This document shows positions 17,699 through 44,701 of a DNA stretch of 64,000 bases, piece after piece. A program made the translations under genes and the position numbers. Numbering within the stretch: position 1 is the stretch's first letter; each line of letters opens with the position of its first letter. The stretch is from Mesotaenium endlicherianum. Lineage: Eukaryota. The stretch spans positions 142,770 to 206,769 of the forward strand of contig WELA01003606.1 of NCBI GenBank assembly GCA_009602735.1. Reading direction: 5' to 3'. The notes below the pieces were generated by a model. It worked only from the letters and a program-made list of their open reading frames with translations, was not told the origin of the DNA and made no database searches.

Positions 17699-18906
17699 GG
17701 GCGGAGGGCCAGGGGCATAGCATGCTAGATGGGAGAGGGATCAGTAATTTCAGTTGGGGAAACCTATGTACCCTTTGTCAATGTTGTCGAGGCGACAACG
17801 TGTTAAGTTGGAGGGACTGTAATGAATCAGTATATTGGTTGATATAATATTTATTTAAATAAAACAGTTTAATAAGTTCAGCCTGCTAAACTCTAGTTAA
17901 TAATCAGTCTGCTGGACTTTATATTTAATATCAGTTTAATGACTCAGTCGGAAGCAGCAGGCTGGAGTCAGCTTAAGTCAGCTTGCTGACACATTCTTTG
18001 ACAGCCAGCTGACTTTCGTACTCGGTAGCACCGAACTGCCTCGATATGCATCTAAGTGTGATATGCTAGATGAATGGCCAGATGACATCCCTACGATGGA
18101 TGGCGATTCGGGATGATGGGAGATGGCGGTTGTAAGGTCATAGGTTTATAAAGTGCATTTTTGAGTCTCATGAAAGTATGATTTGATTGTATAGTAGTGT
18201 AGAGTGCATTTTTGTGGACATTTTGATATAAAGTTCATCGAATTTGGTCAAGTATTGAGAGAATTATGGATTTCCGAAGTTTAATTAGTTTTGAGGTCGG
18301 CTGACGACTGTCCTTAATTCGCGGTGAGCGCGACCGTCGGATTGACCGACAGCGCCGAGCGATCTGGCCCGTTAGAATGAACTCGAACCTTCACGTAAGT
18401 TCGGCTGACGCGGAGTGCCGACTAGGACGATTTACCAAGAAGTTTCGGTTTAGCCTAGCGCGTCTAAGATAGAAAATTCTAGTAATGTCGATGCATGTAT
18501 ATGGACGTCAATTCGGCCCGACACGTCAGATTAGACTGATCTGGCTTACTCACGAATATTCTGGAAGGGACGATTTGACGAACACTTAAGAAAATCCGTA
18601 GCTTCCTCCTAGGGAGGAGCACTTAGGCAGAAAATTATAAATAGGCATAACTTCTTTGTTTCTTATCAGTTTTCACTTCCGTAAATTCCTACGGGTTTGT
18701 AATGACAAGGCCTTTCATCCTACATCATTTGTGAGCAATTTCTTGCCACTCAAAATGTCAAGTAATTTTCCTAAGCCTTCTTAGCAATATGCCGCTGCAC
18801 TCTTGAGTATGATGGCAACTAGCTTTGTTCCTCGTGAGTCACTACGCTTCCACTAGGGCACTCTGCCCTTTTCATCTGGTATCGGAGCAGGGCTGATTAT
18901 TATATT

Positions 18907-19925
18907 ATGGATTCGCAGTCGGTAGCTGGAGGAGGCAAACGTGTTGAGCATGTTGAGCGCGCGGGGCAGCAGGCAGCACCAACAATGACCAGAGAGCAAC
19001 AAGAGATGCAGGCGATGCTAAGGCAATTGGAGGAGAAGTCTACACCCAGTTTCAACAAAATATGCGCGCGGAGGTGGAGAGAATGGTGCGAGTTGTTATG
19101 GGGAACGTCGCTTCGACGAGTTCGGCACCTGCACCTGTTGTGCCACCGATTCATGTTAACCCAGTGGTGCAACCAATTATTCCACCCGCATCAGGAGTGC
19201 GTGCGCCTAAGCCTGAAGTTTATACTGGAGAGCGTGGATCGCCGTCTGTTCATCAATGGATTTTTGGAGTGAAGAACTTTATGGAGTACTCTGCGCTCAC
19301 GCCCGACAGGCAAGTCGCCTTTGTCATAACTTTGCTGCAGAAGAGTGCTGGAGCTTGGTATGAACGAGAAGAGCAGTTGTTTGGAGTTCCTGCTACTGTT
19401 GATCAGCTCTTTGAAGGCTTGAAGAGGCAATTTCAACCTATTGCACCCGAGGCTACCGCTCGAGATCTATTGGTGCGCCTTCGTCAGCGAGGAAGCGTTC
19501 AGGAGTATGTATCGCGCTTCAACGAGCTGGTGCTTCAATGTCCATCCATGCACGAGTCGGAGATGATGGACAAGTTCAAGAGGGGACTCAAGCCAACTGT
19601 GGCCAAGGAAGTGGCGCTCAAGGACCCTACCAGTCTTGGAGAAATGATGGCATTGGCAACAAGGGTCGACGCTGTGGAGTATAGTCAGAGGCAGTGGGGC
19701 AGCCACAACTTTGGAGGATATCGACACTTTGGATCTCAAGCGCCAAGCACGAGTGGACAAGGCCCAGTACCCATGGAGTTGGGACTTGTGCAGTACCAGC
19801 GCAGGCAGCAGAATTTCAAGCCGAGAGGACCGTGCTATAGTTGCGGCAAGCTTGGACATCTGGCTCGAGACTGTCATGTGAAGGCGAAGCAACCTCAACA
19901 GCAGGAAAAAGGAGGACGCCAGTAA
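18907..19925 (+). pseudogene. gag: B2 gag (one frameshift near 19045)
   Basis: PKPEVYTG, LRQRGSVQEYVSRF, GPVPMELG, and CCHC knuckle CYSCGKLGHLARDC. Confidence 0.9.
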
Positions 19926-22900
19926 GTCGTTCTGGGGTGTCTACTGGCGTGAAGACGAGAACTCACAAGGAGGTTATCCCCAGGAGCCTGCCGAGAAGCA
20001 AAAGACGAGATGTTGACAAGCCTCTCATCGTGGAAGGAGTGGTCGACGGCAACAAGGCGAAGTGTATGGTCGACAGTGGCGCAAGTGCAGATTTTGTGCA
20101 CAAGAAGCTGGTGGAACAGTGGCGAATCCCTGTGCAGAAGCATTATGAGCCTAAGGAGGCAATTTTGGCTAATGGGCAGAGACTCAAGTGTGGTGCACCT
20201 ACGAAAGCTATTCACGTGGAAGTAGCGGGGCACCAGAATCAGGAAGTCATGGAGCAGGCAGAGTTAGGTCACCATGCGGTGATATTGGGCCGACCATGGC
20301 TNACCATGAGGTGATATTGGGCCGACCATGGCTAAGAAAAGCCAACCCTCAAGTGCACTGGAGCACAGGACAAGTGAAAGTCCAAGGGTGTGATGGTCGA
20401 ATGGAGACAGCAAAACAGGTTGAGGTAGATACGACCACAAGTAACTGTCTTCTGTCGAGCCTGCAAGTTAAGAAGCTATGCAGGGCGAATCAGGTGAAGG
20501 AGATGCACCTTGTTTCGGTGATCCAGGCCAGGTCATCAGATGGAGCAAGCGTGATTCCTAACAGCCTGGGCGAATGTACATCGCCGGAGGAGCAAGTAGT
20601 GGTGTCTGATCCCCTTGCTCAGAAGGAGCAGAGCCCAACTGCTCAAGAGAAGAAGCCTGCTGAGATGCCTGCCCAAATTAAGGCGCTTTTGGAGGAGTTC
20701 AAGTGCGTATTTCCTGAGGAACTACCTGCAGGATTACCTCCACAGAGAGCTATGGAGCACCGGATTGAGTTGGAACCAAGGAGCAAGCCACCAGTGAGAC
20801 CCGCCTATCGACAATCGTTTGCGGAGTTGGATGAGTTGAAGAAGTAGCTGACAGGGTTGTTGGAGAAGGGATTCATCCGACCCAGCGAGTCTCCATTTGC
20901 AGCGCCAGTCTTATTTGTGAAGAAGAAGGATGGGACTATGAGGATGTGTGTTGACTATCGGGCTCTCAACAAGGTCACCATCAAGAACAGGTACCCACTT
21001 CCACGAGTGGACGAGTTGATTGACAGGCTTGTCGGGGCGAAGTATTTCTCAAAGATCGATTTGAGGAGTGGCTATCACCAGGTACGGATTGCGGAAGGAG
21101 ACGTTCAGAAGACTGCTTTCAGAACTCGCTATGGTTTGTTCGAGTTCACAGTCATGCCTTTTGGATTGACTAATGCACCTGCTACATTCATGAAACTTAT
21201 GAATAGTATCTTCACGCCCTACTTGGACCAGTTTGTGGTGGTATTTTTGGACGACATCCTGATCTATTCAAAGACCTTGGAGGAGCATGTGGGGCATCTG
21301 AGGAAGGTGTTGGAGGTCTTGAGAGATCAAAAGCTGTGTGGGAAGATGAGCAAATGCGACTTCTGTCTCAAGGAGGTCGAGTTTCTTGGACACATAGTGG
21401 GAGCTGAAGGAGTCAAGGTGGAGCAGAAGAAGGTGCAAGCAGTCAGAGATTGGCCGGTACCTGCTGATATTCATCAACTCAGGAGTTTCCTCGGCATGGC
21501 GAATTATTATCGACGTTTCATTGAAGGATTTGCCAAGGTATGTGCACCGCTCACGGACATGTTGAAGAAGCAGGAGAAGTGGCTATGGGGTGACAAGGAG
21601 CAGCAAGCATTTGAGAAGATTAAGGAGCTGTTGACACAGGCACCTTTGTTGGCAATTGCAAGTCCAGAGCTTCTTTTCACCATCATCACAGACGCGTCAA
21701 ACTTTGCAATGGGAGCCATTCGTCTCCAGGACCAGGGCAAAGGATTGCAGCCTGTGGCATATGAGAGCAGGAAGTTGAGTCCTGCTGAGCAAAACTATGC
21801 AGCACACGAGCGGGAGATGTTGGCTATTATCCAGGCTTTGAGGATTTGGCGATGTTATGTGGACGGCCGGAAGGTGTTCATAAAGACCGACCACAAGAGC
21901 TTGGAGAAGTTTATGACGCAGCCAACGTTGAAACCAAGACAAGCAAGGTGGATGGAGTTTCTGCAACAATTTGACCACAAGATTGAGTACTTACCTGGGA
22001 GACGCTCTATCCAGGAGGTGTGACCTTGCAGCTGTTTCAGTCATTAAGGAGAATATGGACTTCAAGAAGAAGCTTCAGAGAGGTTATGAGGAGGACCCAG
22101 AGTTTGCTGATGGCGGAGCAGCTGAGTCCAACTCGAGCATGCAGAAGAAGGACGGCATATGGTATTATGATGATTCCAACAGAGTGGTGGTACCTGACAT
22201 CAAGGAGCTACGAGACTTACTACTTGCGGAGCATCATGACTGCTTATATGCTGGACACTTGGAAGCGAGAAGACGGCAAGCGTGCTGAAGCGAGAGTACT
22301 ATTGGAGAAATATGGACAAGGACATTGAGGAGTGGATCAGGAGTTGTGATGCGTGCCGAGGAAACAAGACACCAAATCAAAAGAAGGGAGGTACATTGCA
22401 GCCCCTGCCTATTCCAGAGTATCCTTGGGAGCAGATTGCTATGAACTTCATCACATCGTTACCAGTCAGTGGTCAAGGGCACGATGCAGTATGGGTTGTG
22501 TCTGACAGACTCAGCAAGATGGCTCACTTCATTCTCATGAAGGAGACTTCTACGGCAGCGGATGTGGCACGGCCATTCCTTGATCATATTTTCAGGCTAC
22601 ATGGGTTGCCGAAAGTGATCGTTTCAGATCGGAATCCAAGGTTCACTAGCAACTTTTGGCGGTCATTGTTTACTTGATAGGGACCAAGCTGAGTATGAGC
22701 ACTTCCTATCATCCTCAGACAGACGGGCAGAGTGAGAGACTCAACAGAACTCTGCAAGAGGTGCTCAGGAGTTTCACTATGGAAGACCCTTCAGAGTGGG
22801 ACAAGAAGCTACCAGGGTTGGAGTTTGCCTACAACAACAGCATGCAGGGATCCACCAAGCGGTCACCATTCGCTATGGTTTATGGGCGAGAAGTATATTA

Positions 22901-23561
22901 TCCAGGGAACATCTTGTTGGAGAAGGCCAAGGAGACTCAGGTTCCTACTACACAAGCTTTTATGGAGCAGATGGCCAAGACTTGGGATATGGCAAAGACG
23001 TGTATTCGGAAGGCACAGGAAGAGCAGGTCAAGCATGCTAACAAGCACAGGAGGGAAGTGACATTCCATGTGGGCGGCAAAGTACTCTTGTCCAAAGAGA
23101 TCATACCTTTCACAGGCAAAACGAAACTGCGGGCACGATTTACAGGTCCCTTTGTAGTGCTTAAGCAGGTGAACCCAGTGGCCTACAAGTTGGAACTTCC
23201 TTCAGGCTGGCGTATCCATGACGTGTTCCATGTCAGTTGTTTGCGGCCATACGTTGACCCGAATGAAGGACATCCAGGACGACTACCTACACCGCCACCA
23301 CCGGTCGAGATCGATGACGTATTGGAGTATGAAATGGAGGCGATTGTCGGCGATCGACGAGTCAAGCGAGGTCAACGATTTGTCCAAGAGTATCTGGTCA
23401 AGTGGAAAGGGTACCATGCGGACGACAACACTTGGGAGCCAGAGGCCAACTTGACTCATTGTAAGAGTAAGTTGAGACGTTATTTGCAGAATGCGTCGAG
23501 AACGTCGCATCTTGAGGAGGGGGATGATGTAAGGTCAGAGGTTTATAAAGTGCATTTTTGA
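19904..23561 (+). pseudogene. pol: B2 pol (PR-RT-RH-IN-chromodomain) running into the 3' LTR; one stop and several frameshifts
   Basis: [71 protein letters not shown]. Confidence 0.93.
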
Positions 23562-25082
23562 GTTTCATGAAAGTATGATTTGATTGTATAGTAGTGTAGA
23601 GTGCATTTTTGTGGTCATTTTGATATAAAGTTCATCGAACTTGGTCAAGTATTGAGAGAATTATGGATTTCCGGAGTTTAATTAGTTTTGAGGTCGGCTG
23701 ACGACTGTCCTTAATTCGCGGTGAGCGCGACCGTCGGATTGACCGACAGCGTCGAGCGATCTGGCCCGTTAGATAGAACTCAAACCTTCACGTAAGTTCG
23801 GCTGACGCGGAGTGCCGACTAGGTCGATTTACCTAGAAGTTTCGGTTTAGCCTAGCGCGTCTAAGATAGAAATTTCTAGTAATGTCGATGCATGTATATG
23901 GACGTCAATTCGGCCCGACACGTCAGATTGGACTTATCTGGCTTACTCACGAATATTCTGGAAGGGACAATTTGACGAACACTTAGGAAAATCCGTAGCT
24001 TCCTCCTAGGGAGGAGCACTTAGGCAGAAAATTATAAATAGGCATAACTTCTTTGTTTCTTATCAGTTTTCACTTCTGTAAATTCCTACGGGTTTGTAAT
24101 GACAAGTCCTTTTATCCTACATCATTTGTGAGCAGCTTCTTGCCACTCAAAATGTCAAGTAGTTTTTCTAAGCCTTCTTAGCAATATTCCGCTGCACTCT
24201 TGAATATGATTGCAACTAGCTTTGTTCCTCGTGAGTCACTACGCTTCCACTAGGGCACTCTGCCCCTTTCAGTGGTGGATTTGGTTAACCGAGGTCCTAC
24301 CAACGTGGTTAACTCCCGGGTAGGCGGTGCCATCGCACTGGCCGTTGAACAGTAAACTCATTCCATGTACATATGCTAGGCATTGCTCTCGAGTTCGACA
24401 TTTGGAAACGAGGCCAACTCTCTTGTACAGCTTATTGAGAGAGATCTGAATCCAAGGCGAGAAGCCATTGATACGCACTGTCTTCTAACCTTACTTATGT
24501 ATGAGTTTACTGATTGCATTATTGATGCTCGTTTACTTGCATTTGATTTACGAGTGTTGTTCAGTGCTAGTGTGTTGTCCTTTTGCCGTTTAATCAGTTA
24601 ACTTAAAATCCATAAAGATTACTTGCTGATATAAAGATCTTTATTAATTGTTGATCGCCTATTTGGTAAGTCGATTCATTTCATCGTATCTACCTCCACC
24701 TGTTTCGCTGTCTCCATTCGACCATCACGCCCTTGGACTTTCACTTGTCCTGTGCTCCAGTGCACTTGAGGGTTGGCTTTTCTCAGCCATGGTTGGCCCA
24801 ATGTCACCTCTTGGTGACCCAACTCTGCCTGCTCCTTAACTTCAGTACTCTGGTGCCCCGCTACTTCCACGTGAATAGCTTCCGTAGGTGAACCACACTT
24901 GAGTCTCTGTCCATTCGCCAAAATTGCCTCCTTAGGCTCATAATGCTTTTGCACAGGGATTCGCCACTCTTTCACCAGCTCCTAGTGCTCAAAGTTTGCA
25001 CTTGCGTCACTGTCGACCATACACTTCGCCTTATTGCCGTCGACCACTCCTTCCACGATGATAGGCTTGTCAACGTCTCGTC

Positions 25083-25539
25083 AAGTGTTCGTCAAATCGT
25101 CCCCTTTGGAATATTCGTGAGTAAGGCAGATCAGTCTAATCTGACGTGTCGGGCCGAATTGACGTCCACATACATGCATCGACATTACTAGAATATTCTA
25201 TCTAAGACGCGCTAGGCTAAACCGAAACTTTTAGGTAAATCGACCTAGTCGGCACTCCGCGTCAGCCGAACTTACGTGAAGGTTCGAGTTCATTCAAACG
25301 GGCCAGATCGCTCGACGCTGTCGGTCAATCCGACGGTCGTGCTCACCGCGAATTAAGGACAGTCGTCAACCGACCTCAAAACTAATTAAACTTTGGAAAT
25401 CCATAACTCTCTCAATACTTGACCAAATTCGATGAACTTTCTATCAAAATGACCATAAGAATGCACTCTATACTACTACACATTCAAAACATACTTTCAT
25501 GAAACTCAAAAATGCACTTTATAAATCTATGACCTTACA
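25083..25539 (-). repeat. Partial 5' LTR of B1 (U5 end, PBS and gag deleted)
   Basis: Homologous to the first ~457 bp of the B LTR, fused to protease sequence at 25082/25083. Confidence 0.85.
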
Positions 25540-28500: not shown

Positions 28501-29386
28501 CATGCAGTTTCTCGACAAACTCTATCCAAGTAGGGTCACCGACCTGCTGAGCCTTACGCTCTCCTTTCCAATACAGCCACCAGTCTGCTGCACTGCCTTT
28601 CAGTAGAGCACCAGTGTGCCTGACCTTCTCGCAATCTTGTAGTTCTGGGTAGTTCTCCAGCCACTGCTCAACATTAGCGAGAAACTTGATCAGGTAATAC
28701 TTTTTGTTTCCCTCAGGATTATAATCCTGGGGAGGTTTCAGCTTAGGCTTACTAGGCCCTCTGCCACCACCACCAGTGGTTTGAGAACCCAGTTGGTCTC
28801 TGTCCCGCAGCAGAGACATTAAGATTCTTTTGTCCTCCTGTTAAAACTGATACATGCTCGCCACTTGCGATTGCATTTGCACAAATAATGCTCCCAAATC
28901 CACACTCTGAGGTGGGAGTCTAGCAAATGCAACAGTAGCAATGGCATCCACTTGCTGAGTAGTGTCCTCAACAGTCCCTCTCGCTCCTGCAGCAGCATTT
29001 CCTGCCGCATTCAGCCGGTCACGTATTTGACCTAGGGGTACATTGATATGTACAGCAGGAGGTGGGTTCAGAACATTGGCCCTTGATGCCATAAGTTCTT
29101 CAACAGTGCGCTCGTCAGCTGGCTGTCCTTCCCTCCTTTCTGTGTCTTCAGCGGCCTTTGCTAATTGTTCAGCTTCTAATTTGGCTCTCTCCTCCTCGGC
29201 TTGCTGTGCTGCGACTGCGGCAATAGCAATTTCCTCATCTGCAACCTCTCTAGCTGCAGTATCTGCCACTGTTTCAGAATAGGTACGGGTTCCCGCTACA
29301 TGGCTTTCCGCCTGGTTTTGGACATTCTCGGTATCCTGGTTCTCCATGTCTTGGGAGTTGCTTGTTTGAGACCTTGTCCCTACCAT
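25540..29386 (-). pseudogene. A1 gag plus 5' pol (PR, RT start), interrupted by an E solo LTR
   Basis: MVGTRSQTSNS start, [41 protein letters not shown]. Confidence 0.9.
27301..28446. repeat. Family E probable solo LTR (~1.15 kb)
   Basis: TGTCA...ACAACA insertion in A1 gag flanked by an (A)AGGA duplication. No coding capacity and single copy in this window. Confidence 0.7.
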
Positions 29387-29420
29387 ACAAAGAAGACTCT
29401 GATAACTGCTCCGATACCAC

Positions 29421-30122
29421 TGAAATGAATTGTCTTACCTAATAAAGATCTTTATATCAGTAAGTTATCTTTATGGATTTTCCGTTAACTGATTAAACGG
29501 CAAAAGGACAACACACTAGCAGTGGACAACACTCGTCAATCAAATGCGAGTAAACTAGCATCAACAATGCACTCAATAAACTCATACATAAGCAAGGTTA
29601 GAAGACAGTGTGTATCAATGGCTTCTCGCCTTGGATTCAGATCTCTCTCAGTAAGCTGTACCAGAGAGTTGGCCTCGTTTTTAAATGCCGAACTCGAGAG
29701 CAACGCCTAGCATATGTACATGGAATGAGTTTACTGTTCAACGGCCAGTGCGATGCCACCGCCTACCCGGGAGTTTACCACGTTGGTAGGACCTCGGTTA
29801 ACCAAATCCACCGCCATCTCCCATCATCCCGAATCGCCATCCATCATAGGGATGTCATCTGGCCATTCATCTTGCATACCACACTTAGATGCATATCAAG
29901 GCAGTTCGCTGCTACCGAGCACGGAAGTCAGCTAGCTGTCAAAGAATGTGTCAGCAAGCTGACTTAAGCTGACTTCAGCCTGCTGCATCCGGTTGAGTCA
30001 TTAAACTGATACTAAATATAAAGTCCAGCAGACTGACTATTAAGTAAAGTTCAGCAGGCTGAATTTGATTTACTATTACATTTAAATGAATATTATATCT
30101 ACTAATATACTGATTCATTACA
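29421..30122 (-). repeat. Family A LTR shared by A1 (as 5' LTR) and A3 (as 3' LTR)
   Basis: PBS complement at 29408-29419 on one side and PPT complement ATCCCTCCAACTT from 30123 on the other. Confidence 0.92.
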
Positions 30123-30234
30123 ATCCCTCCAACTTAACTTGTTGTCGCCTCGACAACATTAAACTGCAGGAGTCTTTAATCAGGAAGCTGAACTTGACCC
30201 GCCTCTCCCAGTGACTGTCCCTTCAGCCTGTTGC

Positions 30235-31911
30235 CTAGGGGGTTATTCCTGGGGCTTCAGGATCAGGAGACCGAGATCTGGACCTAGATCTGGACAGCCC
30301 TCTAGGTCTGTCAGCTGGCCTTCTAAAGAACCCCGTTTGCTCTAAAGTTGGACCTCGAGGAGAACGAAGGATGGTAGCCTGCTCTTCACCCACTTGGGTG
30401 TTGATCCCCACAGAGACAGGCATTCCAGTAGGATGCTGAAATACATTGGCAAGAGGTACATGCCCCTGGGTGGAGGGGGAGGCGGGCATACCTCTGGCCC
30501 ACCCGCGTGTCCCTCTTCTGGCACCCCTGTCCTCTGGAGATTTCTGCCTATGTCTGCTGCCCAGTACAGTCAGATCAGCTTCTTCCCCTGCTTGGGCAGG
30601 TGGGCTGGGGGAGCGAGTGCGGGGTCCAGTTGCCTCCATGACGGGGATCACGTTCCAAATACCTGATCGTGGTTCTTTGGGAAGTGCCCCTGCCTGCCCC
30701 TGGGTCTCCTGAGTACCAGCTGCTGATGCTTCTCCTCTGCCTTGTTCTTCTTCTTCATCGTTTTCATCCTCCTCCTCGGAGAGAGTAGGGGTCTCGTCCA
30801 CTAAGTCGTCCTGCTCCCTAGTAGACATGGAGTAGTCTACCGACCTCCCTTTCTTAGGGCGCGCTGGAGGTTGCTTGGCCTTTAGCCTGCTGATATCTAT
30901 CCGGCCTGCATTCTTCGCCCATTTGACGAAGGCATGCTTTCCCTCAGAGAAGTAGTCTCTCCCCCTCCTCCTGTGCTCCTTATTCTCTGCATTCATATTG
31001 CTCAGGTAGCCATTCAGCCTGGGGTCCCAAGGGGCAATGTGAGGTGGTAGGATGAGATAGCCGTCTAGGCCATAGTGGAAGTCATCCGGTTGGGCTCGGT
31101 CACAATCCTGCTTCTTATTTGTCACGGTCATCCACCTCCAGTCTGTTGGCTGCTGGTAGTAGTGGGGTCCGACCTCAGCCTTCCTCAGTTTACACGAGAA
31201 CCAGTGGGGAGAGAACATCTGCTGTCCTGCTTCCCTGGCCAAGTACTCCCAGCTCCTCCTCTCAACTTCATTGTAAGCTGGCAGTAATGTGAGGTAGAAT
31301 ACCGTATCCTTAAAGCTATCGGGCCGCATGCTCACCATCCGGATGAGTCTCTGATCTCCCACTATTCCCGGTATGGGGACCGGCTTGTCCTCTGAATCAT
31401 CTGCATGGTACCGGGCCTGCTCTGCTGTATAGCCCACCATCTTGGCATAATCTTCGTAGAGGACCACACCAGTGTGTGTCTCGATGTACCTATCCAGTGC
31501 TGCAGTTCCTTTCCTCTATAGCAGTGTTGTCTGTTCCAGCTTGTTGATCTCTTGGGCTGCCAGCAATGCTTCCTTCAGGTTATCAAAGTTTCGGCCACCC
31601 ACCACAGTATGCCTGTAAGTGGCCAAGCTGTTCTGTCTGTCCGCTACAATCTTTTTCCTTCTCTCCTCCTCTGCCGCTGCCGCTTCCTCTTGTCGTTTCT
31701 TCTGTCTCTCCTCCTCAGCTTTCCTGAGGTTTTCCGCTTCCTGATCCTTCTTCCTTTGTGCCTCTTCTGCCGCCTCTTGTTGTCTGCGGACCCTTTCTTG
31801 TTCTCTCTTGGTGAGGGACGTCGCCGCCAGCTCCTTCTGGTATTGCTCCATTGTCCTCCCGGCTTCTTCTGCCTTGCGCTAACTGTCCTCCTTTTGTGTG
31901 GTGGGAGCCAT
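30235..31911 (-). pseudogene. ORF3 accessory gene of A3 (divergent allele II), 558 codons with 2 in-frame stops
   Basis: ATG at 31911 is in frame with ORFs 31516-31851 and 30235-31467. Shares DSFKD, YNEVERRS, QPTDWRWMT, LPPHIAPWDPRLNG, FSEGKHA and GHVPLANVFQHPTGMP with allele I. Confidence 0.88.
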
Positions 31912-32278
31912 CCTGTACATGAAACCAGGGCATAAGTTAGTAGGATATCGACCTTTGTCATAGGGATTGCAGGCAGGAAGTATGTTTGTATTAGTATGGT
32001 GGATTCGCTCCTGTTTACCTTACAGGGTGATTGCTAAAAGTCGACGTAGTTGCGGTGCGCTAACATAAACGTATGAATATGTTTTAAGTTGAGTTAAGTG
32101 AAGTTAGCTCAAGGTGCTTTATGTGGGCCAGGCTGTCCCATCTGTCACTATGCTGACACTTAGGATTCACGTAACTGTCCCTTTATCGCTCTCGTTCACT
32201 AATTGTCATATATTTTCCCCTCCAACTTAAATGGAGACAGGACCGCCTGTCACCTTCCCATGTCAACTGAAATGACAG

Positions 32279-35200
32279 TTATGGAGGGGCTCCAGCCGCC
32301 CGAAGGTGGAACCGTTTCAACGCCCCTTTGGCATTGGTCAAATGGTCCTTCAATTCCCAAGTGTCCCCAGAGGCATCGTAACCCTTCCATCGAATGAGGT
32401 ACTTCATGACATATTTAGACGATTGACGGATCGAGCGCGCGTCTAAAATCTCCTCAATCTCATATTCGTCAGAGTCGCCGTCCCTGACAGCGGGGACCGG
32501 TCCCGGTTGGACAGGGTACCGACCCGTGAACAGTGTATCACCTTTGATGTATGGTTCCAGGAAGGAGACATTAAAGACCGAGTGACCCTTGTATTCGGCT
32601 GACATGTTCAGGGGTGTAAGCATTCTGACCGACACGACGCACCACCAAATATGGACCGACCCAGACAGGGCCAAGCTTTTTCTTGACCACACCAGGGAGG
32701 TACAGGTGCTGAGTGTGCAGTTTGACAAAATCGCCCTTAGAAAATGTCAGATCCCGACGGTGTTGATTAGCGTATTTTTATTGGTTTTCTTGGACTTTGT
32801 GCAGGTTTTGTTGGACTTCTGACAGGGTGTCTGCAAACTCCTTACTTAACGGTGGTTTGCTGTCCTGAGCAGCTGTTTGACTCCCATTAACCCCATTAAA
32901 GCTCTCCAGAACTTAGGGGTAAATTTTGAGTCTCTGTCTGAGATGATATTAGAGGGTAGCGTATGTTGGCATACTACATGGTTGTAGAACTGTCTCGCTG
33001 TTTCGAGTGCAGTCACTTTGACAGTTGTGGGGATAAAATTGACCATTTTTGTCAGTTTATCTACGACTACCAGTATCGAATCAAGCCATTGGCAATTTTT
33101 GGTAGTGTGACCACCCAGTCCATGGATATAGTCACCCAGTCCATGGATATAGTTTCCCAGCGTCCAGCTGGGGTGGGGAGTAATTGCAAGAGACCTCCCG
33201 GTGGTGTGTGCCTAGACTTATTCTTTTGACACTGATCACAGGATTTTACATATTTCAAGACCTCCCGGGGCATCCCTTCCCAATGAAGTTGTTTTGCCAG
33301 TTTGCCAACTGTTTTGGCGTGCCCCAAATGCCCACCCAGTAAACTGTCATGTGCTTGACTCAATAAAAGGGACCTTATTTCCAAGTTATTAGGAATGACC
33401 AGCTTCAGCCTGCCTGAAGTGGTTTCAGTTACCCAGACCCTTCCCTTAAGCTTATACCCGAGTGCAGTAGCACGACACACACCAGTAGTGGGGCTGGGCT
33501 CAAATGTTGGGTCAGAAAGGTAGACTTTCCTAAGTTGTTCAAGGAAGGACTTTTTCACCTTTCGTGAAGTGAGTGCACACAGGACTTTATCTACAGCATG
33601 ATGACTAAAGTTCCTTTCTTGCAAGTCAGGTATTCTAGAGAGTGCATCAACAGGATTCAACTTCCCTGGTTTGTAGTCGATTTGGACTTGGAACTGCTCC
33701 AGCATCTGGCTCCAGCGGTTCTCCCTCCTCGACAGCTTGGACTTCTTCTGAAAGTGGGTCAGAGCTAGATGATCTGTAATCACCTTAAAAGCTTTACCAT
33801 GTAAGTATGCTCTCCACTGTTTGAGTACATGAATGATAGCTAGCAGCTCTTTATCATGCACTGAGTAATTAATCTCCGCTGGATTAAATTTCATAGACTA
33901 ATACAACACAGGATGCCACTCCTGCCGTACCTTACCATCCTTTGTGGTTTTCTCAGCAGGCTTCAACAAAATAGCACCCATGGCAAAGTCAGAGGCATCA
34001 GTGACCACCTGCACCAGCTTGCTGGGGTCATACACGGCTAGCACCGGGGCAGAACAAAGAGCATCTTTAAGGGCGTGGAAGGCAGCCTGCTGCTCTTCCC
34101 CCCAAACATACCCTATGTCCTTCTTAGTAAGGTCAATCAGTTTACTGGCCTTTGTAAAATAATTCTCAATAAATCTCCTATAGTAGTTAGCCAACCCGAG
34201 GAAGGATCTAACTTCAGAGACAGACTGTGGTACTGGCCAGTCCCTTATGGTCTGAACTTTCTTAGGATCCACACTGATGCCGTCTTTACTGACAACGTGG
34301 CCTAAGAATTCAATACTTTCTTTAAAGAAATCACACTTGCTCATTTTAGCATATAAGTGATTTTTTCTCAGAGTGTCCAGGACTGTCTTTACGTGTTCAG
34401 CGTGCTGAGCTTCATCTTTAGAGAAAATTAAAATATCATCCAGGAAAACTTGCACAAACTTGTCCAAATAAGGCCTGAAAATGTCATTCATGGCACCCAT
34501 GAAGGTCGCAGGAGCATTTGTCAGTCCAAATGGCATCACGTTGAACTCATAGTGTCCATAACGTGTGCGGAAGGCAATCTTGTGTTCATCTCCATCAGCA
34601 ATTCTGATTTGATGATAACCACTCTTGAGATCTATCTTACTGAACACCTTAGCACCAGACAGGGTATCAAGCAAGTCCTCGATTCTGAATAAAGCATACT
34701 TGTTCTTTACTGTAATTCTGTTCAGGGCTCTGTAATCCACACACATCCGCATACTGCCATCCTTTTTCTTAACAAATAGGATGGGTGCGCCGTAAGGTGA
34801 TTTACTGGGAGACATATAACCATTTTCCTCAAGCTCTGCAATCTGTGTTTTCAACTCCTTGCTCTCCACATAAGACAAGCCATAAGTGCATTGCCAGGGT
34901 GGCTGACTCTCAGGTAATAAATCAATCCTATGATCTACTTCCCTCTTAGGGGGTAGTCACGGATCCGTGTACTGAGCAACAATTTTCGCAGCAGTAGGGT
35001 GCTCCAGAGGGCTTACCTTTTTCTCCACCTCTTCTTCAGGTTGAGGAGGTACCTCTCTTAGCAGCAGACAGAACATTCTGTCTTCACTCTGGTTCCAGCT
35101 TTTGACGAACTCCATTGCATTCAGCAACTTGCATCCTTCTGGAGGCCTCTTCTTTTCCTTCATTTGCCATCCACACAGGACAAGAGGAAGAGCACTGGTG

Positions 35201-36567
35201 GGTGCCAAGTCAGTCTGCCCATCACTGGCTCCTCTCACTTTAACTGTACCTCTGCTCCAACACACTTCAGCTTGATGTCTATTAAGCCAGGACCTGCCTA
35301 GCACGAGATCATAAAAGCCAGTGTTGAGTATCTCAAATGTAAGCGTTTCAGTTAGAACTGCAATGCCAGAACCTAACTGGATGAAATGTATCGACTTACC
35401 AAATAGGCGTTTAACAATTAATGAAGATCTTTATATCAGCAAGTAATCTTTATGGTATTTTTCGTTAACTGGTTTAACGGCAAAGGACAACACACTAGCA
35501 GTGAATAATACTCGTCAGTCAAATGAGAGTAAACTAGCATCAATAATGCAAATCAGTAAACTCATACATAAGCAAGGTTAGAAGACAGTGCGTATCAATG
35601 GCTTCTCGCCTTGGATTCAGATCTCTCTCAGTAAGCTGTACAAGAGAGTTGGCCTCGTTTCCGAATGCCGAACTCGAGAGCAATGCCTAGCATATGTACA
35701 TGGAATGAGTTTACTGTTCAACGGTCAGTGCGATGGCACCGCCTACCCGGGAGTTAACCACGTTGGTAGGACCTCGGTTAACCAAATCCACCGCCATCTC
35801 CCATCATCCCGAATAGCCATCCATCATAGGGATGTCATCTGGCCATTCATCTAGCATATCGCACTTAGATGCATATCAAGGCAGTTCGCTGCTACCGAGT
35901 ACGGAAGTCAGCTGGCTGTCAAAGAATGGGTCAGCAAGCTGACTTATATGGACTTCAGCTTGCTGCTTCCGGCTGAGTCATTAAACTGATAATTATGTAA
36001 AGTCCAGCAGACTGACTATTTAACTAAAGTTCAGCAGGCTGAACTTAATTAACTATTATATTTAAATGAATATTACATCCACTAATATACTGATTCATTA
36101 CACTGGACCTCAATAGGCTTGGTTATAAATCCTCCCGGGATACTTGAGGCATCTCCAAGGAATATTTTTCCCTTCCCTTGGGTGACAGTAGGCAGCCTTA
36201 GCCGCTTAACTAAGTCCTTGTGGATAAAAGTATGTGACGCCCCTCCGTCAACAAATGCCCTCACCTTCCTACCTGCAATCATGCAATGCAGTAGGATAGG
36301 GGGGACTGTCTTTTCCTGACTTTCGCATTGTTCTCCTGACGTAGCAAAGAAATGTTGGACATCAGGTGGAACAAGAGCATCCAAAGTGTGCACTCTCTGG
36401 ACGTCTATATTGCTGATGGTCTCCTTTATCTGGTTGTCAGGCATGCATAGTGAATCCAGTTCAGCAGGACCCATAATACCTGCTACGAGGGCAGCTAGTG
36501 ACGACTCACTATCTCTAGCATCCTCACAGTCAGTAGACTAGATTACTAACTGTTGCTGTCTTTTAAA
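32279..36567 (-). pseudogene. pol: A3 pol, disrupted
   Basis: PR, RT (33898-34878), RNase H, integrase and chromodomain EYEIEEILDAR..YLIRWKGYDASGDTWE. Confidence 0.92.
35382..36102 (-). repeat. Family A solo LTR inserted in the A3 protease region
   Basis: TG...CA ends with TSD CTGGA at 35377-35381 and 36103-36107. Confidence 0.93.
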
Positions 36568-37797
36568 GGCGGGCCTTTTCTCTCGAGCTTCGGGAGGTGC
36601 TTGACTGGACACTGTTCTCTGTAGTGGCCCAACTGCTGACAATGGTAGAAAATGGATTTTGATGAGGCTAGTCTCGGCTTAGTCCTACCACCACCTCTTC
36701 CATAGCCGCCTCGAGAAAAACCATCTCTACCTCTAGACTGTATGGCTTTATACTCATACTCATATCCATCACCCTGATCATCCTCAGCCTGGTCTCCTTC
36801 AATTGCATTGTAGGAACCGTGGGGCTTTTTGACAACCTTAGACACCAAGGCATTACTCTGGCGCTTGTGATAAAACTGCTGCTGATCCCAGGCATCAGCA
36901 TCCTGGATCAAGTCAGCCAGTTTCTCAGACTTCTACCCACGTAGGGTCACCGAGATGCCGAGCCTTACGCTCTCCTTTCCAGTAAAGCCACCAGTCTGCG
37001 GCACTGCCTTTCAGTAGAGCACCGGTGTGCCTGACCTTCTCGTAATCTTGCAGTTCTGGGTAGTTCTCCAGCCACTGCTCAACATCCGCGAGAAACTTGA
37101 TCAGGTAATATTTTTTGTTTCCCTCAGAATCATATTCCTTGGGAGGTTTCGGCTTGGGCTTACTAGGCCCTCGACCACCACCACCAGTGGTTTGAGACCC
37201 CAGTTGGTCTCTGTCCCGCAGTAGAGACATTATGATTCTTTTGTCCTCCTGCTGGGACTGATACATGGTCGCCATTTGCGACTGCATTTGAACGAACAAT
37301 GCTCCCAAGTCTACACTCTGGGGTGGTAGTCTAGCAAATGCAGCAGCAGCATTGGCATCTACTCGCTGAGTAGTGTCCTCAACAGTCCCTCTCGCTCCTG
37401 CAGGAGAAATTCCTGCCGCATTCAGCCGGTCACGTATTTGACATAGGGGTACATTGAGTTGTACAGCAGGAGGTGGGTTCAGAATATTGGCCCTTGATGC
37501 CATAAGTTCTTCAACAGTGCGCTCGTCAGCTGGCTGTCTTTCCCTCCTTTTTGTATCTTCAGCGGCCTTTGCTAATTGTTCAGTTTCTAATCTGGCTCTC
37601 TCCTCCTCAGCTTGCTGTGTTGCGACTGCGGCTATAGCAGCTGCCTCATCTGCACCCTCTCTAGCTGCAGTATCTGCCACTGTTTCAGAATAGGTACGGG
37701 TTCCCGCTACATGGCTTTCCGCCTGGTTTTGGACATTCTCGTTATCCTGGTTCTCCATGTCTCGGGAGTTGCTTGTTTGAGACCTTGTCCCTACCAT
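36546..37797 (-). pseudogene. gag: A3 gag with internal deletion
   Basis: ORFs 36925-37797 and 36546-36911 match the family-A gag. Confidence 0.9.
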
Positions 37798-37831
37798 ACA
37801 AAGAAGACTCTGATAACTGCTCCGATACCAC

Positions 37832-38548
37832 TGAAATGAATTGTCTTACCTAATAGGCGTTTAACAATTAATAAAGATCTTTATATCAGTAAGTTATCTT
37901 TATGGATTTTCCGTTAACTGATTAAACGGCAAAAGGACAACACACTAGCAGTGGACAACACTCGTAAATCAAATGCGAGTAAACTAGCATCAACAATGCA
38001 CTCAATAAACTCATACATAAGCAAGGTTAGAAGACAGTGTGTATCAATGGCTTCTCGCCTTGGATTCAGATCTCTCTCAGTAAGCTGTACCAGAGAGTTG
38101 GCCTCGTTTTTAAATGCCGAACTCGAGAGCAACGCCTAGCATATGTACATGGAATGAGTTTACTGTTCAACGGCCAGTGCGATGCCACCGCCTACCCGGG
38201 AGTTTACCACGTTGGTAGGACCTCGGTTAACCAAATCCACCGCCATCTCCCATCATCCCGAATCGCCATCCATCATAGGGATGTCATCTGGCCATTCATC
38301 TTGCATACCACACTTAGTTGCATATGGAGGCAGTTCGTTGCTACCGAGTACGGAAGTCAGCTGGCTGTCAAAGAATGTGTCAACAAGCTGACTTAAGTTG
38401 ACTTCAGCCTGCTGCTTCCGGCTGAGTCATTAAACTGATACCAAATATAAAGTCCAGCAGACTGACCATTAACTAAAGTTCAGCAGGCTGAACTTAATTT
38501 ACTACATGTAAATGAATATTATATCTACTAATATACCGATTCATTACA
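37832..38548 (-). repeat. Family A LTR (5' LTR of A3), abutting the middle of the A4 3' LTR
   Basis: TG...CA ends and adjacent PBS; followed by internal LTR sequence TTTGGCCATTC. Confidence 0.92.
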
Positions 38549-38881
38549 TTTGGCCATTCATCTAGCACACCACACTTAGATGCGTATCTAGGTAGTTCTC
38601 TGCTACCGAGTACGGAAGTCAGTTGGCTGTCAAAGAATGTGTCAGCACTGACCTAAGTTGACTTCAGCCTGCTGCTCCCGGCTGAGTCATTAAACTGATT
38701 ATTTAATTAAGCTCAACAGATTCAATATTAATTAAAGTTCAGCAGGCTGAACTTATTTAACTATTATTATATCAACCAATATACTGATTCATTACAATCC
38801 CTCCAATTTAACATGTTGTCGCCTCGACACCACTAACACTAGTAACAGCGTGCTGTCCCTTCCGTCCCCAGCCTACTGCCA

Positions 38882-40535
38882 TTAGGAGGGAGATGTCCCT
38901 GGGGCCCTATACTCAGGGGAGCCGGTCCTCCTCCTGTGTTGGGGTTCCTGAAGCCTGGGAGATCTGCATAGGGGCCTCGCGGAGAACGCAGTAACTGGGC
39001 TGTTTTCTCCTGCACAGTCTGAAACTGAAGGGAGGCAGCCTTCTCCTGGGCAGCCCTCAATCTGACAGGTACATATACCGGCATTCCATAAGGAAGTTGC
39101 ATGACACAAGCCAAGGGCACATGCCCTCTCTGCGAGGGAGATGCTGGCAGGCCTCTGGATATCTCCCTAGCAGCCCTCCTGCCCTGTCTGACTGGGTCTT
39201 CGTGCCTGCAGATGGGCTCGGTCCTCTGGCAGTTCCCAGCCAAGTGATGTTCTCCTCTTCAGCGAGCTGTTGCAAGGCCATCCCAGTTTTCTTCCTTACA
39301 GGGGATGTGGCAGGTGTCAGGACCACAGCGGAGCTAGTGTCCTCCTCCTCGCCTTCCTCTTCTTCTTCCTGTGACCCCTCCTCCTCTCCTTCCCCTGGTT
39401 CCTCTGAGACCGCTGAGGTCTCCTCTGTCAGCTGCTCTAGCTCTTCCCAAGAAAAAGAATACCCCACTGACCTTCCCCTTTTGGGTGCTGGTGGGGGCTG
39501 TTGAGGCCGGACCGCATGCAAGTCCTTTTCTCCCTGCTTGCTTGCCCATTTAGCATAAGCGTGCTTCCCTTTAGAGAATGATTCACAGGCCCTGATCCTG
39601 TCCTCCTGCATTTCTTGGCTCATGCAATCTCTTACTCCATCCAGTCTTGGGTCACAAGCTGCAATGTGAGGAGGCAACAGTATGTTCCCTTGTAGGTCTG
39701 TTAGGAAATCCTCATCCTTTGCCTTGTCATTCTGCTGGTCCCTCATGTTGATGGTCATCCACCGCTAATCGGTGGGCTTCTGGTAAAAGGCAGGGTCTGT
39801 CCTTTTCAGAGTGCACGGGTAGCAGTGCCCTACGAAGTCCAGCTGACTGGTTTCCCTGGCCAAGAACTCCCGGCTTTTCCTCTCCACCTCATTATACATG
39901 GCCTTGAATTGGTTATGGGGTGTAGAGTCCTTAAAGCTGTCCGCGTCCATGGGGATCATCCTGATGACCCTATCCTTTCCTCAGATGCCTGGGATCGATA
40001 CAGCTCCTGTCTCATTCACTTGGGCCATTGCCTTGGCCTCTCTGACTGTATACCCTACCATCCTGGCATAATCGTGGTAGAGGAGTAGCCCTGTGCTGAC
40101 CTCGATATACTTGTCAAAGTGTTCGGATGTCTCCTCTTCCCTCTGCAGGATGTTCTGCTGTGCCTCACTGCGACTTCTCTGGGTATACTTGAAGGCCTCC
40201 TCCAGTAGATCAAAGCCCTTGCCCAGTATTGTGTAGCGGTAGCTGCTGATTCTCCTCTGTTCTTCTTCTTCAGCCTGCTGCTTCCGCCTCTCCTCGGCTT
40301 GCCTCTCCTCTTGCGCCTTCTTGGCCTCCTTTGCAGCTATTCTGTCCAGTTCTTCCTGCCTCAGCCTGGCTTGCTCCTCCTCCTCCTTCTTCTTCTGTGC
40401 CTCCCGCTGTTGTTGGAGTCGTTATGATTCCCGAGCGGAGATGGAGGATGATTCGATGTCGCTACGGAATTGCAAGTAGTCTGCATGTGCCTCTTCCGCT
40501 CTTCTCTTCCTCTTAAGTTTCGACTTCTGGATCAT
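38882..40535 (-). pseudogene. ORF3 accessory gene of A4 (allele I), disrupted
   Basis: Collinear with A2 ORF3 (ORFs 39765-39959, 39057-39758, 38882-39109). ATG at 40535 follows CAG|G. Confidence 0.88.
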
Positions 40536-40893
40536 CCTGCCCAATCATAAACAAAATGCCGTCAATGAAGTCATGATACTTTGCCGCTACTGAGTGCCCG
40601 TGGTTAAGAAGAATGTGATAGGGAGAGTCCCTAGTGTGTAGTACCTTGTGTGAATGAGTATAAGAGAGAATTGAGTTAGAGAGAAAAAGTGCGTATGAGC
40701 GCAGGTTGAGTGTGTAGAATGGTTATAAAATTTGCCTGGCTGATCCCGAAACGGAACACACTCCCTCCAACTTAATTTTAAAGGTGGGCAACCTGTCACA
40801 ACTGTCACTATCTGTCACTAATTGTCACATTCCCCTCCGACTTATACGGAGACAGGACCTCTTGTCACCTGTCCATGTCCACTGAAATGACAG

Positions 40894-43800
40894 TTAGGGA
40901 GGGGTGCCAGCCGCTCGAAGGTGGAACCGTTTCAACGCCCCTTTGGCATTGGTCAGTTGGTCTTTAAATTCCCAAGTGTCCCCAGAGGCGTCGTAACCCT
41001 TCCATCTGACCAGGTACTTCTTGACATGTTTAGATGATCGACGGACAGAGCGAGCGTCAAAATCTCCTCCACCTCATATTCCTCAGGGTCACCATCCGGG
41101 ACAGCGGGGACCGGTCTCGGTTGGACAAGTAACCGACCTGTGAACAGTGTGTCACCGTTGATGTACGGTTCCAAGAAGGAGACATTAAAGACTGGGTGAC
41201 CCTTGTGATCTGCTGACATGTTCAGTTTATAAGCATTCTGACCGACACGGCGCACCACCGAATATGGACCGACCCAGACCGGACCAAGCTTTTTCTTGAC
41301 CACACCAGGTAGGTACAGGTGCTGAGAATGCAGTTTGACCAAATCGCCCTTAGAAAAGGTCAGCTCTCGACGGTGCTGATTAGCATATTTTTGTTGATTT
41401 TCTTGGGCTTTGTGCAAGTTTTGTTGGAATTCCGACAGGGTGTCAGCAAACTCTTGTGTTAACTAGAGAGAGACCGGATTGTCAATCCCTTCAGGGTGAG
41501 TTAAAGACTCCCCCAGTACATCTAAAGGAGACTTAGGGACTCTACCCAGGCTCAGTTCAAAAGGAGTCTTGCCCGTTGACGCGTGCACCGCACTGTTGAT
41601 CGCAATCTGGATTTGAGGTAACAGGTCATCCCAATCATCTTGTTTTTGGTTGATATAGGCTCTCAGCACCTCTTGCAAAACTCGGTTAGTTCTTTCAGTC
41701 TGCCCATCAGTTTGAGGGTGGTTTGCTGTGCTGAGCAGCTGCTTGACTCCCTTTAACCCCATTAAAGCTCTCCGAAACTTAAAGGTAAATTTTGAGTCTC
41801 TGTCTGAGATGATATTAGAGGGTAGCGTATGTTGGCATACTACATGGTTGTAGAACTGTCTCGCTGTTTCGAGTGCAGTTACTTTGACAATTGTGGGGAT
41901 GAAAATGACCATTTTTGTTAGTTTATCCACGACTACTAGTATCGAATCATGCCCATTGGCAGTTCGTGGCAGTGTGACCACCCAGTCCATAGATATAGTT
42001 TCCCAGCGGGCAGCTGGGATGGGCAGCGGTTGTAAGAGGCCCCCCGGTGGTGTGTGCGTAGACTTATTCTTTTGACACTGGTCACAGGACTTAACGTATT
42101 TCAAGACCTCCCGAGGTAATCCCTCCCAATGATAATGTATTGCCAGTTTGCCAATAGTTTTGGCCTTCCCCAAATGCCCACCCAGTAAACTGTCATGAGC
42201 TTGACTCAGTAAAAGGGACCTTATTTCCAAGTTATTAGGAATGACCAGCTTCAGCCTGCCTGAAGTGGTTTCAGTCACCCAGACCCCACCCTTAAGTTGA
42301 TACCCGAGTGCAGTAGCAAGACACACACCATCAGTGAGACGGGCTCAATGTTAGGTCAGAAAGGTAGGCTTTCCTAAGTTGTTCAAGGAAGGACTTTTTC
42401 ACCTTTCGTGAAGTGAGTGCACAAAGGACTTTATCTACAGCATGCTGACAAAAGTTTCTTTCTTGCAAGTCAGGTCTTCTAGAGAGTGCATCAGCAAGAT
42501 TCAACTTCCCTGGTTTGTAGTCAATCTGGACTTAAAACTGCTCCAGCTTCTGGCTCCAGCGGTTCTCCCTCCTTGACAGCTTGGACTTCTTCTGAAAGTA
42601 AGTCAGAGCTAGATGATCTGTAATCACCTTACAAGCTTTACCATGTAAGTATGCTCTCCACTGTTTGAGCACATGAATGATTGCTAGCAGCTCTTTATCA
42701 TGCACGGAGTAATTAATCTCAGCTGGATTAAATTTCATTGACTTATACAACACAGGATGCCACTCTTGTTTTACCTTACCATCCTTTGGGGTTTTGTCAG
42801 CAGGCTTCAACAAAATAGCACATATGGCAAAGTCAGAGGCATCAGTGACCACCTGCACAGGATTGCTGGGGTCATACACGGCTAGCAATGGGGCAGAACA
42901 AAGAGCATCTTTAAGGGTCTGGAAGGCATCCTGCTACTCTTCCCCCCACACATACCCTATGTCTTTCTTAGTAAGGTCTGTCTTTGTAGAATAATTCTCA
43001 ATAAATCTCCTATAGTAATTAGCCAACCCAAAGAAGGATCTAACTTCAGAGACAGACTGTGGTATAGGCCAGTCCATTATGGTCTGGATCTTCTTAGGAT
43101 CCACACTGATGCCTTCTTTGCTGACAACATGGCCTAGAAATTCAATACTTTCTTCGAAGAAATCACACTGCTCATTTTAGCATACAATTGGTTCCTTCTC
43201 AGAGTGTCCATGTGCCCCTTTCACCTTGACTGTCTTTAAGTGTTCAGCATGCTGAGCTTCATCTTTGGAACAAGAAAAATATCATCCAAGAAGACTTGCA
43301 AAAACTTATCCAGGTAAGGTCTAAAAATGTCATTCATAGCACCCATGAAGGTTGCAGGAGCATTGGTCAGTCCGAATGGCATCACGTTGAACTCATAGTG
43401 TCCATAACGTGTGCGAAAGGCAGTCTTGTGTTCATCCCCCTCAACAATTCTGATTTGATGATAACCACTCTTGAGATCCACCTTACTGAACACTTTAGCA
43501 CCAGACAGGGTATCAAGCAAGTCCTCAATTCTGGGTAAAGCATACTTGTTCTTTACAGTAATTTTGTTAAGAGCTCTGTAATCAACACACATCCGCATAC
43601 TGCCATCCTTTTTCTTAACAAAGAGGATGGGTGCACCATAAGGTGATTTACTGGGGGAAATGTCACCATTTTCCTCAAGCTCTCCAATCTGTATTTTCAA
43701 CTCTTCGCTCTCCACATAAGACAAGCCATAAGTGCGTTGCCAGGGTGGCTGACTCCCAGGTAATAAGTCAATCCTGTGATCCACTTCCCTCTTAGGAGGT

Positions 43801-44701
43801 AGTCTTGGAGGCATATTGAAAACATCAGTGTACTGAGCAACAATTTTCGCAGCAGTAGGGTGCTCCGGAGGACTTACCTTTTTCTCAACCACTTCTTCAG
43901 GTTGAGGAGGTACCTCTCTTAGCAGCAGACAGAACATTCTGTCTTCCTTCTGGTTCCAGCTGTCGATGAACTTCATTGCATTCAACAATTTGCATCCTCC
44001 TAGAAGCCTCTCTATTTCCTTCATTTGCCATCCATACAGGACAAGAGGAAGAGCACTGGTGGGTGCCAAGTTAGTTTGCCCATCACTGGCTCCTCTCACT
44101 TTAACTGTACCTTTGCTCCAACACGCTTCAGCTTGATGTCTATTAAGCCAGGACCTGCCTAGCACAAGATCATAGAAGCCAGTGTTGAGTACCTCAAATG
44201 TAAGCGTTTCAGTTAGAACTGCAATGCCAGAACCTAACTGGACCTCAATAGGCTTGGTTATAAATCCTCCCGGGATACTTGAGGCATCTCCAAGGAATAT
44301 TTTTCTCTTCCCTTGGGTGACAGTAGGCAGCCTTAGCCGCTTAACTAAGTCCTTATGGATAAAACTTTGTGACGCTCCTCCGTCAACAAATGCCCTCACC
44401 TTCCTACCTGCAATCATGCAATGCAGTAGGATAGGAGGCCTGTCTTTTCCTGACTTTCGCATTGTTCTCCTGACTTAGCAAAGAAATGTTGGACATCAGG
44501 TGGAACAAGATCATCCAGAGTGTGCACTCTCTGGAGATCTATATTGCTGATGGTCTTCTTTATCTGGTTGTCAGGCATGCATAGCGAATCCAGTTCAGCA
44601 GGACCTATAATACCTGCTACGAGAGCAGCTAGTGACGACTCACTATCTCTAGCATCCTCACAGTCAGTAGACTGGATTACTGACTGTTGCTGTCTTTTAA
44701 A
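40894..44701 (-). pseudogene. pol: A4 pol, disrupted
   Basis: ORFs 43236-44462 (PR, RT), 42532-42888 (RH), 41463-42326 (IN) and 40953-41417 (GPY/F, chromodomain). Confidence 0.92.

Follow-up and report, generated by a model that had tools for sequence, protein, structure and literature searches.

Layout of the window and of the family A copies

The window is a 64,000-nucleotide stretch of Mesotaenium endlicherianum DNA, and positions 1–47,400 of it are a nest of LTR retrotransposons. Four copies (A1–A4) belong to one high-copy family, family A, which is of the Ty3/gypsy chromovirus type and carries a sense open reading frame, ORF3, between pol and the 3′ LTR. LTRs, a primer-binding site (PBS), a PPT and the domain order gag-PR-RT-RH-INT were all found, as in chromoviruses. 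The Pfam search of A3 gag-pol detected protease, RT, RNase H and integrase zinc finger domains, together with weak matches to the Ty3 capsid and zinc knuckle. A chromodomain was present at the pol end (PF00385, 39.5 bits against a cut-off of 25.1), and the best pol matches mostly carry PF00385. The best named pol relatives are from Closterium, Nannochloris, Haematococcus and others, at 31–49% identity. Family A gag and pol apparently lie in different, overlapping frames, from which most Chlamyvir elements differ. The PBS, TGGTATCGGAGC, resembles what we take to be a tRNA-Met site; Tcn1 is self-priming, unlike family A with this presumed tRNA-Met-like PBS.

The whole A3 element runs from 38548 to 29421 on the minus strand. 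Its 5′ LTR (37832–38548), which starts within the truncated 3′ LTR of A4, is followed by the primer-binding site, and the decayed gag-pol (32279–37831) has lost about 250 nt at 32850/32851. A solo LTR of family A is inserted in its pol at 35382–36102 (minus strand) with a 5-bp target-site duplication. The 3′ LTR of A3 (29421–30122), likewise with a primer-binding site after it, doubles as the 5′ LTR of A1. The internal region of A4 lies at 46185–38797 (minus strand), and A2 is on the plus strand at 10413–17817 plus a split 3′ LTR. A B element, which has a matching 5-bp duplication, splits A1 (minus strand) into two parts, 29420–25540 and 7189–1719. Copies A4, A3 and A1 thus form a head-to-tail array (29421–47359) with one LTR common to A3 and A1, and two LTRs begin within truncated LTRs (38549–38796 and 46914–47359).

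Family B (18131–24273 and 7190–25539) is a chromovirus with a similar PBS, and its RT is about 65% identical in DNA to that of family A; its pol ends at its own PPT and LTR, and it has no ORF3. LTRs of two further families (1–477, 12289–12792 and 8274–9254) are inserted in A2 and B, and sequencing runs show the empty-site joints. Rfam returned 0 matches within 29400–38900. Outside the nest, a GC-rich host gene with introns lies at 53600–63500 (minus strand); it contains SNF2/CHD helicase-like exon fragments, gave no Pfam match on raw frames, and is presumably MOM1-like. A 784-amino-acid open frame at 49752–52106 (plus strand) has no Pfam match and contains several RGRP motifs, which we take to be AT-hook-like.

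ORF3 alleles of family A

A3 carries a minus-strand ORF3 of 558 codons at 30235–31911, interrupted in frame by stops at codons 11 and 132. The second of these stops seems confined to this copy, as 202,734 of the 203,708 depth at 31518 in the public run X1 differs from it. The A2 ORF3 (16037–17695, plus strand, four in-frame stops) and the A4 ORF3 (38880–40535, minus strand, with stops, a late frameshift and an approximate end) are of a second type. The A1 ORF3 (2640–4225, minus strand), which has a mutated start codon, frameshifts and an approximate end, is a third allele. The original prediction described two deeply diverged alleles; the divergence holds, and the number is three.

The A3 ORF3 protein is 43–45% identical to those of A1, A2 and A4 over the whole ORF and 46–50% identical in the core, in agreement with the 40–50% predicted for the core. 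A1 is closer to A2 (68% whole, 75% core), at a dS of 1.3–2.0. By DNA block, A3 is 88–94% identical to A2/A4 in gag-pol and 53% in ORF3. The sliding-window comparison that had been proposed gave the expected profile, with 86–99% between A3 and A2/A4 along gag-pol and a drop to 56–68% over ORF3, where A2 and A4 remain at 83–92%. The gag-pol and LTRs of A3 had been called nearly identical to those of the other copies. They are similar, but to a lesser degree, since the gag-pol blocks fall short of this as given above and the LTRs are 90–93% identical to the solo and A4 LTRs; the U3 of the A3 LTR is 88–91% identical to the A2, A4 5′ and solo LTRs.

Module edges, leader and predicted intron

The 5′ edge of the ORF3 module is a predicted hairpin and PPT-like motif after the pol stop (32218–32290, minus strand), with the motif, TAAGTTGGAGGG, at 32229–32218. 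In 50-column windows, A3 is 80–96% identical to A2/A4 until about 32270 and then 28–54% from 32194 on, compared with 67–90% between A2 and A4 in the same windows. At the 3′ edge, a hairpin and the true PPT (30123–30162, minus strand), homology returns at 30162–30123, with 90% identity to A4 over 40 nt and 94.6% to A2 over 37 nt. Both boundaries were therefore located where they had been predicted, the break right after the PPT-like motif (~32215) and the return at the hairpin before the true PPT (~30160). Each edge consists of a predicted hairpin followed by a purine motif. At 32218–32290 (minus strand), a predicted pairing joins the pol-stop sequence to the PPT-like motif 60 nt downstream, with an inner hairpin between them, and the A2 fold is similar.

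The A3 ORF3 leader (31912–32217, minus strand, 306 nt) is overall unalignable with the other leaders, as had been claimed, but immediately beyond the break a short stretch matches A4, and the splice signals are found at equal spacing. A 5′-UTR intron of 106 nt is predicted in A3 at 31913–32018 (minus strand), with an AG|GTA donor, a CTAAC branch site at 31940 and a CAG|G acceptor. In each of the four leaders, an AG|GTA donor lies 106–108 nt upstream of a CAG|G acceptor, which is one base before the start-codon position, and a YTRAC branch site lies 25–26 nt from the acceptor; the predicted introns are 106 nt in A1 and A3 and 108 nt in A2 and A4. In shuffles of each leader, these signals occurred at frequencies of about 0.025, 0.03 and 0.17, in windows set after the data had been seen and with the A2 and A4 leaders being non-independent. 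Because all four leaders retain the predicted intron at the same spacing, the ORF3 module is likely a self-contained gene with its own transcription unit. GCCCA and AT-rich TATA-like words occur upstream in the leaders, and by analogy with plant motifs an internal promoter is likely to lie in the A3 leader.

The joints listed for the RNA runs X21 and X24, of which 6% and 13% were read, include none from splicing. Splicing to the ORF3 acceptor from the LTR end, where there is a GTAAG donor, was also considered and is less favoured, as the listed joints do not include it and the leaders have a conserved donor closer by. The A1, A2 and A4 leaders (4460–4600, 15750–15815 and 40760–40835) contain a second PPT-like motif and several GTGACAG repeats; the A3 leader lacks the second motif, and a 14-nt word is common to A3 and A1.

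Divergence step and incongruent histories

Between A2 and A3, dS is 0.10–0.15 in gag, 0.07 in PR, 0.14 in RT and 0.14–0.16 in RH-INT. It rises to 0.35 in the chromodomain, and ORF3 is saturated (pS 0.75–0.76). Between A2 and A4, dS is 0.29–0.39 in ORF3 versus 0.19–0.31 in gag-pol; because these values are close, the synonymous sites of ORF3 are not intrinsically fast. An excess is also seen between A1 and A2, where the ORF3 value given above compares with 0.28–0.41 for the backbone. The dN/dS of the ORF3 core is about 0.07 (A1–A2) and below 0.26 (A3–A4), and ORF3 is under purifying selection.

The tree and site comparisons cover the four decayed copies only. Informative sites in the gag-pol blocks are distributed 45:20:10 in favour of A2+A3. 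In ORF3, 80 sites support A2+A4, 16 support A2+A3 and 16 the third grouping, and this flip between gag-pol and ORF3 (45:20 vs 16:80) is significant (Fisher p 2e-11). RT-RH-INT groups A2 with A3 and rejects the ORF3 tree (AU p 0.010), so the incongruence predicted between RT and ORF3 trees is present among the four copies. ORF3 alone falls just short of rejecting the pol tree (AU p 0.051). The gag-PR block favours the A2–A4 grouping by 8 vs 5 sites, which is non-significant, and neither tree is rejected by the gag-PR and INT-chromodomain blocks. Module and backbone histories are thus incongruent, at n = 4 copies and an AU p of 0.051 on the ORF3 side, as expected for an exchanged module.

The A3 locus after insertion

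A3 has no target-site duplication. Of the sites at which its two LTRs differ, 17 fall within the first 231 nt and 1 beyond, and the near-identity extends about 180 nt past the LTR. Positions 29230–29890 and 37650–38317, from the two A3 LTR regions, are about 99% identical over about 670 nt, with flanks differing by 5–9%; this tract takes in the LTR except for its 5′ third, then the PBS and the first part of the internal region. It points to recent gene conversion, recombination or local assembly blending, and the A3 locus is reworked after insertion. The LTR pair (97.4%) therefore proves nothing on age, and dating A3 by it was abandoned owing to the converted-looking tract. The case for exchange rests on family-level evidence.

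Abundance of the ORF3 types in public runs

A run search listed 24 runs from 6 studies, 20 of them with part of the stretch, and 4 of the 24 were compared over two stretches. Summed contig depth, which is no copy number, was used for within-run ratios only, with edge and leader bins excluded. In X1, which is possibly the window's own sample, the median depth was 478k for A3 ORF3 (8 bins), 257k for A2 ORF3 (2 bins) and 16k for A1 ORF3 (3 bins). The ORF3 sum of 752k compares with a pol median of 791–807k (791k over 16 bins). In X11, a run of organism C from a separate study that is possibly RNA or DNA, the A3, A2 and A1 types were at 20, 10.7 and 0, giving 30.7 against 29.3 for pol. The ratio of A3 type to A2 type is therefore about 2:1 in both runs, and the sum is close to the pol depth; the two runs carry different organism labels, which may be one species. 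The A3 type is the commonest by depth, and both types ride on pol that is at least 85% like the window copies.

One X11 contig (1328 nt, depth 29.3) matches pol of both copies, with 64 differences from A3 and 66 from A2, and another joins the end of an A3-type ORF3, the PPT and the LTR (29959–30333). For the 5′ junction of the A3 module, no bridging contig or read was among those listed. The original prediction had named an assembly chimera or one-off rearrangement of A3 as cases that would undo it; with the type abundant in two runs, these are unlikely at the family level. In X1, A1-like pol (4941–7088) has about 8 times the depth of A1-type ORF3 (2793–4403), so A1-like backbones may mostly carry other ORF3 types, or a split between two similar pol copies may inflate the depth.

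None of the RNA runs among those listed contains the stretch. X21 has no reads in 7 of 8 depth bins within the A3 ORF3 span, and X24 has some on the A3 ORF3 3′ half and low depth on other alleles; neither has reads on the 5′ part of A3 ORF3 in the portions read. Stranded poly(A) reads of X21 over 32142–32750, at a depth of 4–10, suggest that some family copy gives rise to antisense RNA at the end of pol that encodes the integrase and chromodomain.

The ORF3 protein

The ORF3 protein has a charged, helix-like N-terminal region of about 95 amino acids and an aromatic-rich core of about 260. These are followed by an acidic tract, a conserved tail motif and a low-complexity tail, which in A3 ends in RS repeats. 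Basic motifs are present, namely KRKRR (A1, A2 and A4) and PK(K/R)GR. No transmembrane segment was found (maximum 19-residue Kyte-Doolittle mean 0.75 in A3 and 0.65 in A2), and Pfam, word-index and HMMER searches of ORF3 gave no homology to viral fusion proteins; we therefore rejected env or an env-like protein as its identity. Pfam gave no family at cut-off, with sub-threshold matches of low-complexity type only, and the plant mobile domain, Transposase_28 and Athila ORF-1 were discarded on this ground. The word-index protein search, restricted to lengths of 234–746, returned no homologue, and a full HMMER search with a 3-sequence profile returned 3 matches, all repeat proteins that were unrelated on inspection. 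An Atlas search with residues 1–225 of A3 ORF3 gave no usable match, and scans of metagenome and viral contigs confirmed 0 of 209 and 0 of 48 candidates. AlphaFold2 on 3 ORF3 sequences gave an unusable model (pLDDT 37). From its sequence features, the product is likely a nuclear helper protein. The leading candidate role, to which we give about even odds, is that it would act in trans on the transcription, RNA export or silencing of the element itself, and not as an envelope. VANC is an anti-silencing accessory protein.

Exchange of the ORF3 module and alternative explanations

The claim that the whole ORF3 module was exchanged is sustained by the dS jump, the flip of informative sites and a pol pool common to both types in two runs, and module exchange by recombination is well supported. 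We propose that at least three versions of ORF3, long diverged from one another, sit on a single gag-pol/LTR backbone and are probably block-exchanged by template switching, each being a predicted transcription unit of its own for a likely nuclear helper; we give this reading a probability of roughly 0.72. Co-packaged RNAs would recombine by copy choice, crossing over in homologous flanks, and RT template switching is the route that we infer. The 5′ flank would be the pol end with its hairpin and PPT-like motif, and the 3′ flank the hairpin, PPT and U3. The ORF3 interior, at about 53% DNA identity, would be too diverged to recombine, so the module would travel whole while the backbone is homogenised, and two crossovers would be needed because U3 follows the backbone. 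Since the leader, predicted intron and coding region would move jointly, each swap would deliver a working gene. The module edges may simply be where conserved sequence stops, and the internal PPT-like motif may provide an extra plus-strand priming site or pause. We also considered a special cassette recombinase, but nothing points to one and none is needed.

A few ancient captures of ORF3 from sister families, happening once or twice and followed by neutral amplification of the recombinant subfamilies, would account for the data equally well, and we regard this as quite possible, if short of probable. The four copies require only about two exchanges, one for the A3 type and one for the A1 type. 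According to the available text, canonical Ty1 arose via a single gag transfer and recombination (PMC7055915), and recombination between distant elements is described as rare in the part of PMC6894440 at hand. Against this, one X11 pol contig serves both types at their summed depth and is equidistant from A2 and A3, which suggests that the backbone is still shared, and A2 pairs with A3 in RT-RH-INT and with A4 in ORF3.

Balancing selection in a host-element conflict, the effector-like reading of the original prediction, might instead hold the alleles, for example through differing anti-silencing specificities. In its favour, purifying selection acts on three persisting alleles whose dS is saturated or nearly so, and two of them are common at a similar ratio in runs with two organism labels. 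However, pairwise dN/dS is well below 1, giving no sign of positive selection, a shared amplification burst accounts for the same ratio, the labels may be one species, and neither a function nor a host partner is in hand; we consider this explanation doubtful. Its fullest form, in which self-contained anti-host accessory genes would be ancient balanced alleles crossing species and repeatedly shuffled between two PPT-hairpin edges, seems rather unlikely.

Ectopic recombination or gene conversion at the DNA level between integrated copies, with the chimeras copied later, is suggested by the head-to-tail order of A4, A3 and A1, by the LTR common to A3 and A1 and by the tract of about 670 nt at about 99% identity. 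This route alone cannot account for the A3-type majority by depth, as a transposing recombinant is needed anyway, and we judge it improbable. An origin of A3 by chimeric assembly or by a single rearrangement event would fit the 5′ junction without a listed bridging read, the near-identical LTR tract and the missing target-site duplication. It is very improbable given that in X1 and X11 no ORF3 type has greater depth than the A3 type, that pol depth is reached only when the A3 type is counted, and that a contig of an independent study joins an A3-type ORF3 3′ end to the family LTR. The idea that ORF3 is merely fast-evolving, without any exchange, draws on the high divergence of extra ORFs in plant elements generally (PMC6317226, in the text available) and is hardly credible, being contradicted by synonymous sites that are saturated between A2 and A3 yet at pol level between A2 and A4.

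Comparison with known systems

Extra ORFs downstream of pol are common in LTR elements of the plant lineage, and their function is debated in the available portions of PMC6317226 and PMC7264820. Two ORF3 alleles of about 45% identity, present in bulk on the same backbone, offer a natural controlled comparison of accessory genes, in which allele type can be related to copy age, methylation, expression and insertion site. Family classification based on RT can mask deeply different accessory genes. Among the literature searched, which consisted mostly of titles and abstract openings and did not extend to subscription papers or bioRxiv supplements, we found no published report of family A or of allele-level exchange of a chromovirus ORF3.

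Like family A, SIRE (eORF-3′F), Tekay, Retand, Bagy2 and Grande (gene23) have an extra ORF between pol and the 3′ LTR (PMC6317226; PMC7264820), and such ORFs are described, in the available parts of these papers and of PMC11963269, as having no known function and being very divergent within a lineage. These comparisons run between families, whereas the family A alleles share one backbone. The product of Grande gene23 is nuclear and the gene is driven by a promoter of its own, according to the accessible text of PMC7264820; the gene is antisense, whereas ORF3 of family A is sense. As far as the available text of the REXdb paper goes, eORF-3′F occurs in 18% of Tekay and in none of Chlamyvir, Tcn1, Galadriel, Reina and CRM, nor in any of the algal or moss chromovirus clades (PMC6317226). 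Chlamyvir and Tcn1 are therefore both without eORFs in REXdb, whereas family A has ORF3.

The ORF3s of bdelloid rotifers (PMC5408684) and CERV of Cer1 (PMC10309623) are likewise non-envelope accessory genes of LTR elements, and CERV is described in the text at hand as a nuclear protein required to export unspliced genomic RNA (PMC10309623). No sequence link of either to the family A ORF3 is shown, and the rotifer ORF3 types are unrelated, family-specific proteins, whereas those of family A are homologous alleles. Intra-family recombination during retrotransposition is documented for ONSEN (PMC5668417; PMC6894440, both in part). Its route is likely the same and would account for the mosaic backbone of family A, but the ONSEN partners are closely related throughout and, unlike family A, have no deeply diverged module.

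In retroviral env swapping, as in the BaEV, RD-114, MuLV and FeLV recombinants, the gene that is exchanged likewise comes third, after pol and before the 3′ LTR, and the conserved gag-pol is retained, and template switching takes place in co-packaged RNAs (PMC10536682, as far as its accessible text describes). ORF3 differs in having no transmembrane segment or env homology, and family A is an intracellular element; env is spliced from the 5′ LTR, whereas ORF3 has a predicted promoter of its own and a short UTR intron. Ty1 and Ty1′ are likewise coexisting subfamilies in which one divergent gene was gained by recombination and control of the element is affected (PMC7055915, in the part available). 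There the exchanged gene is gag, with a known role, whereas ORF3 is an orphan extra ORF that is far more diverged and has three alleles. By analogy, the exchange in family A would resemble both env swapping and Ty1/Ty1′, with an orphan conserved gene as the exchanged part and an unexpected 2:1 coexistence of the two types.
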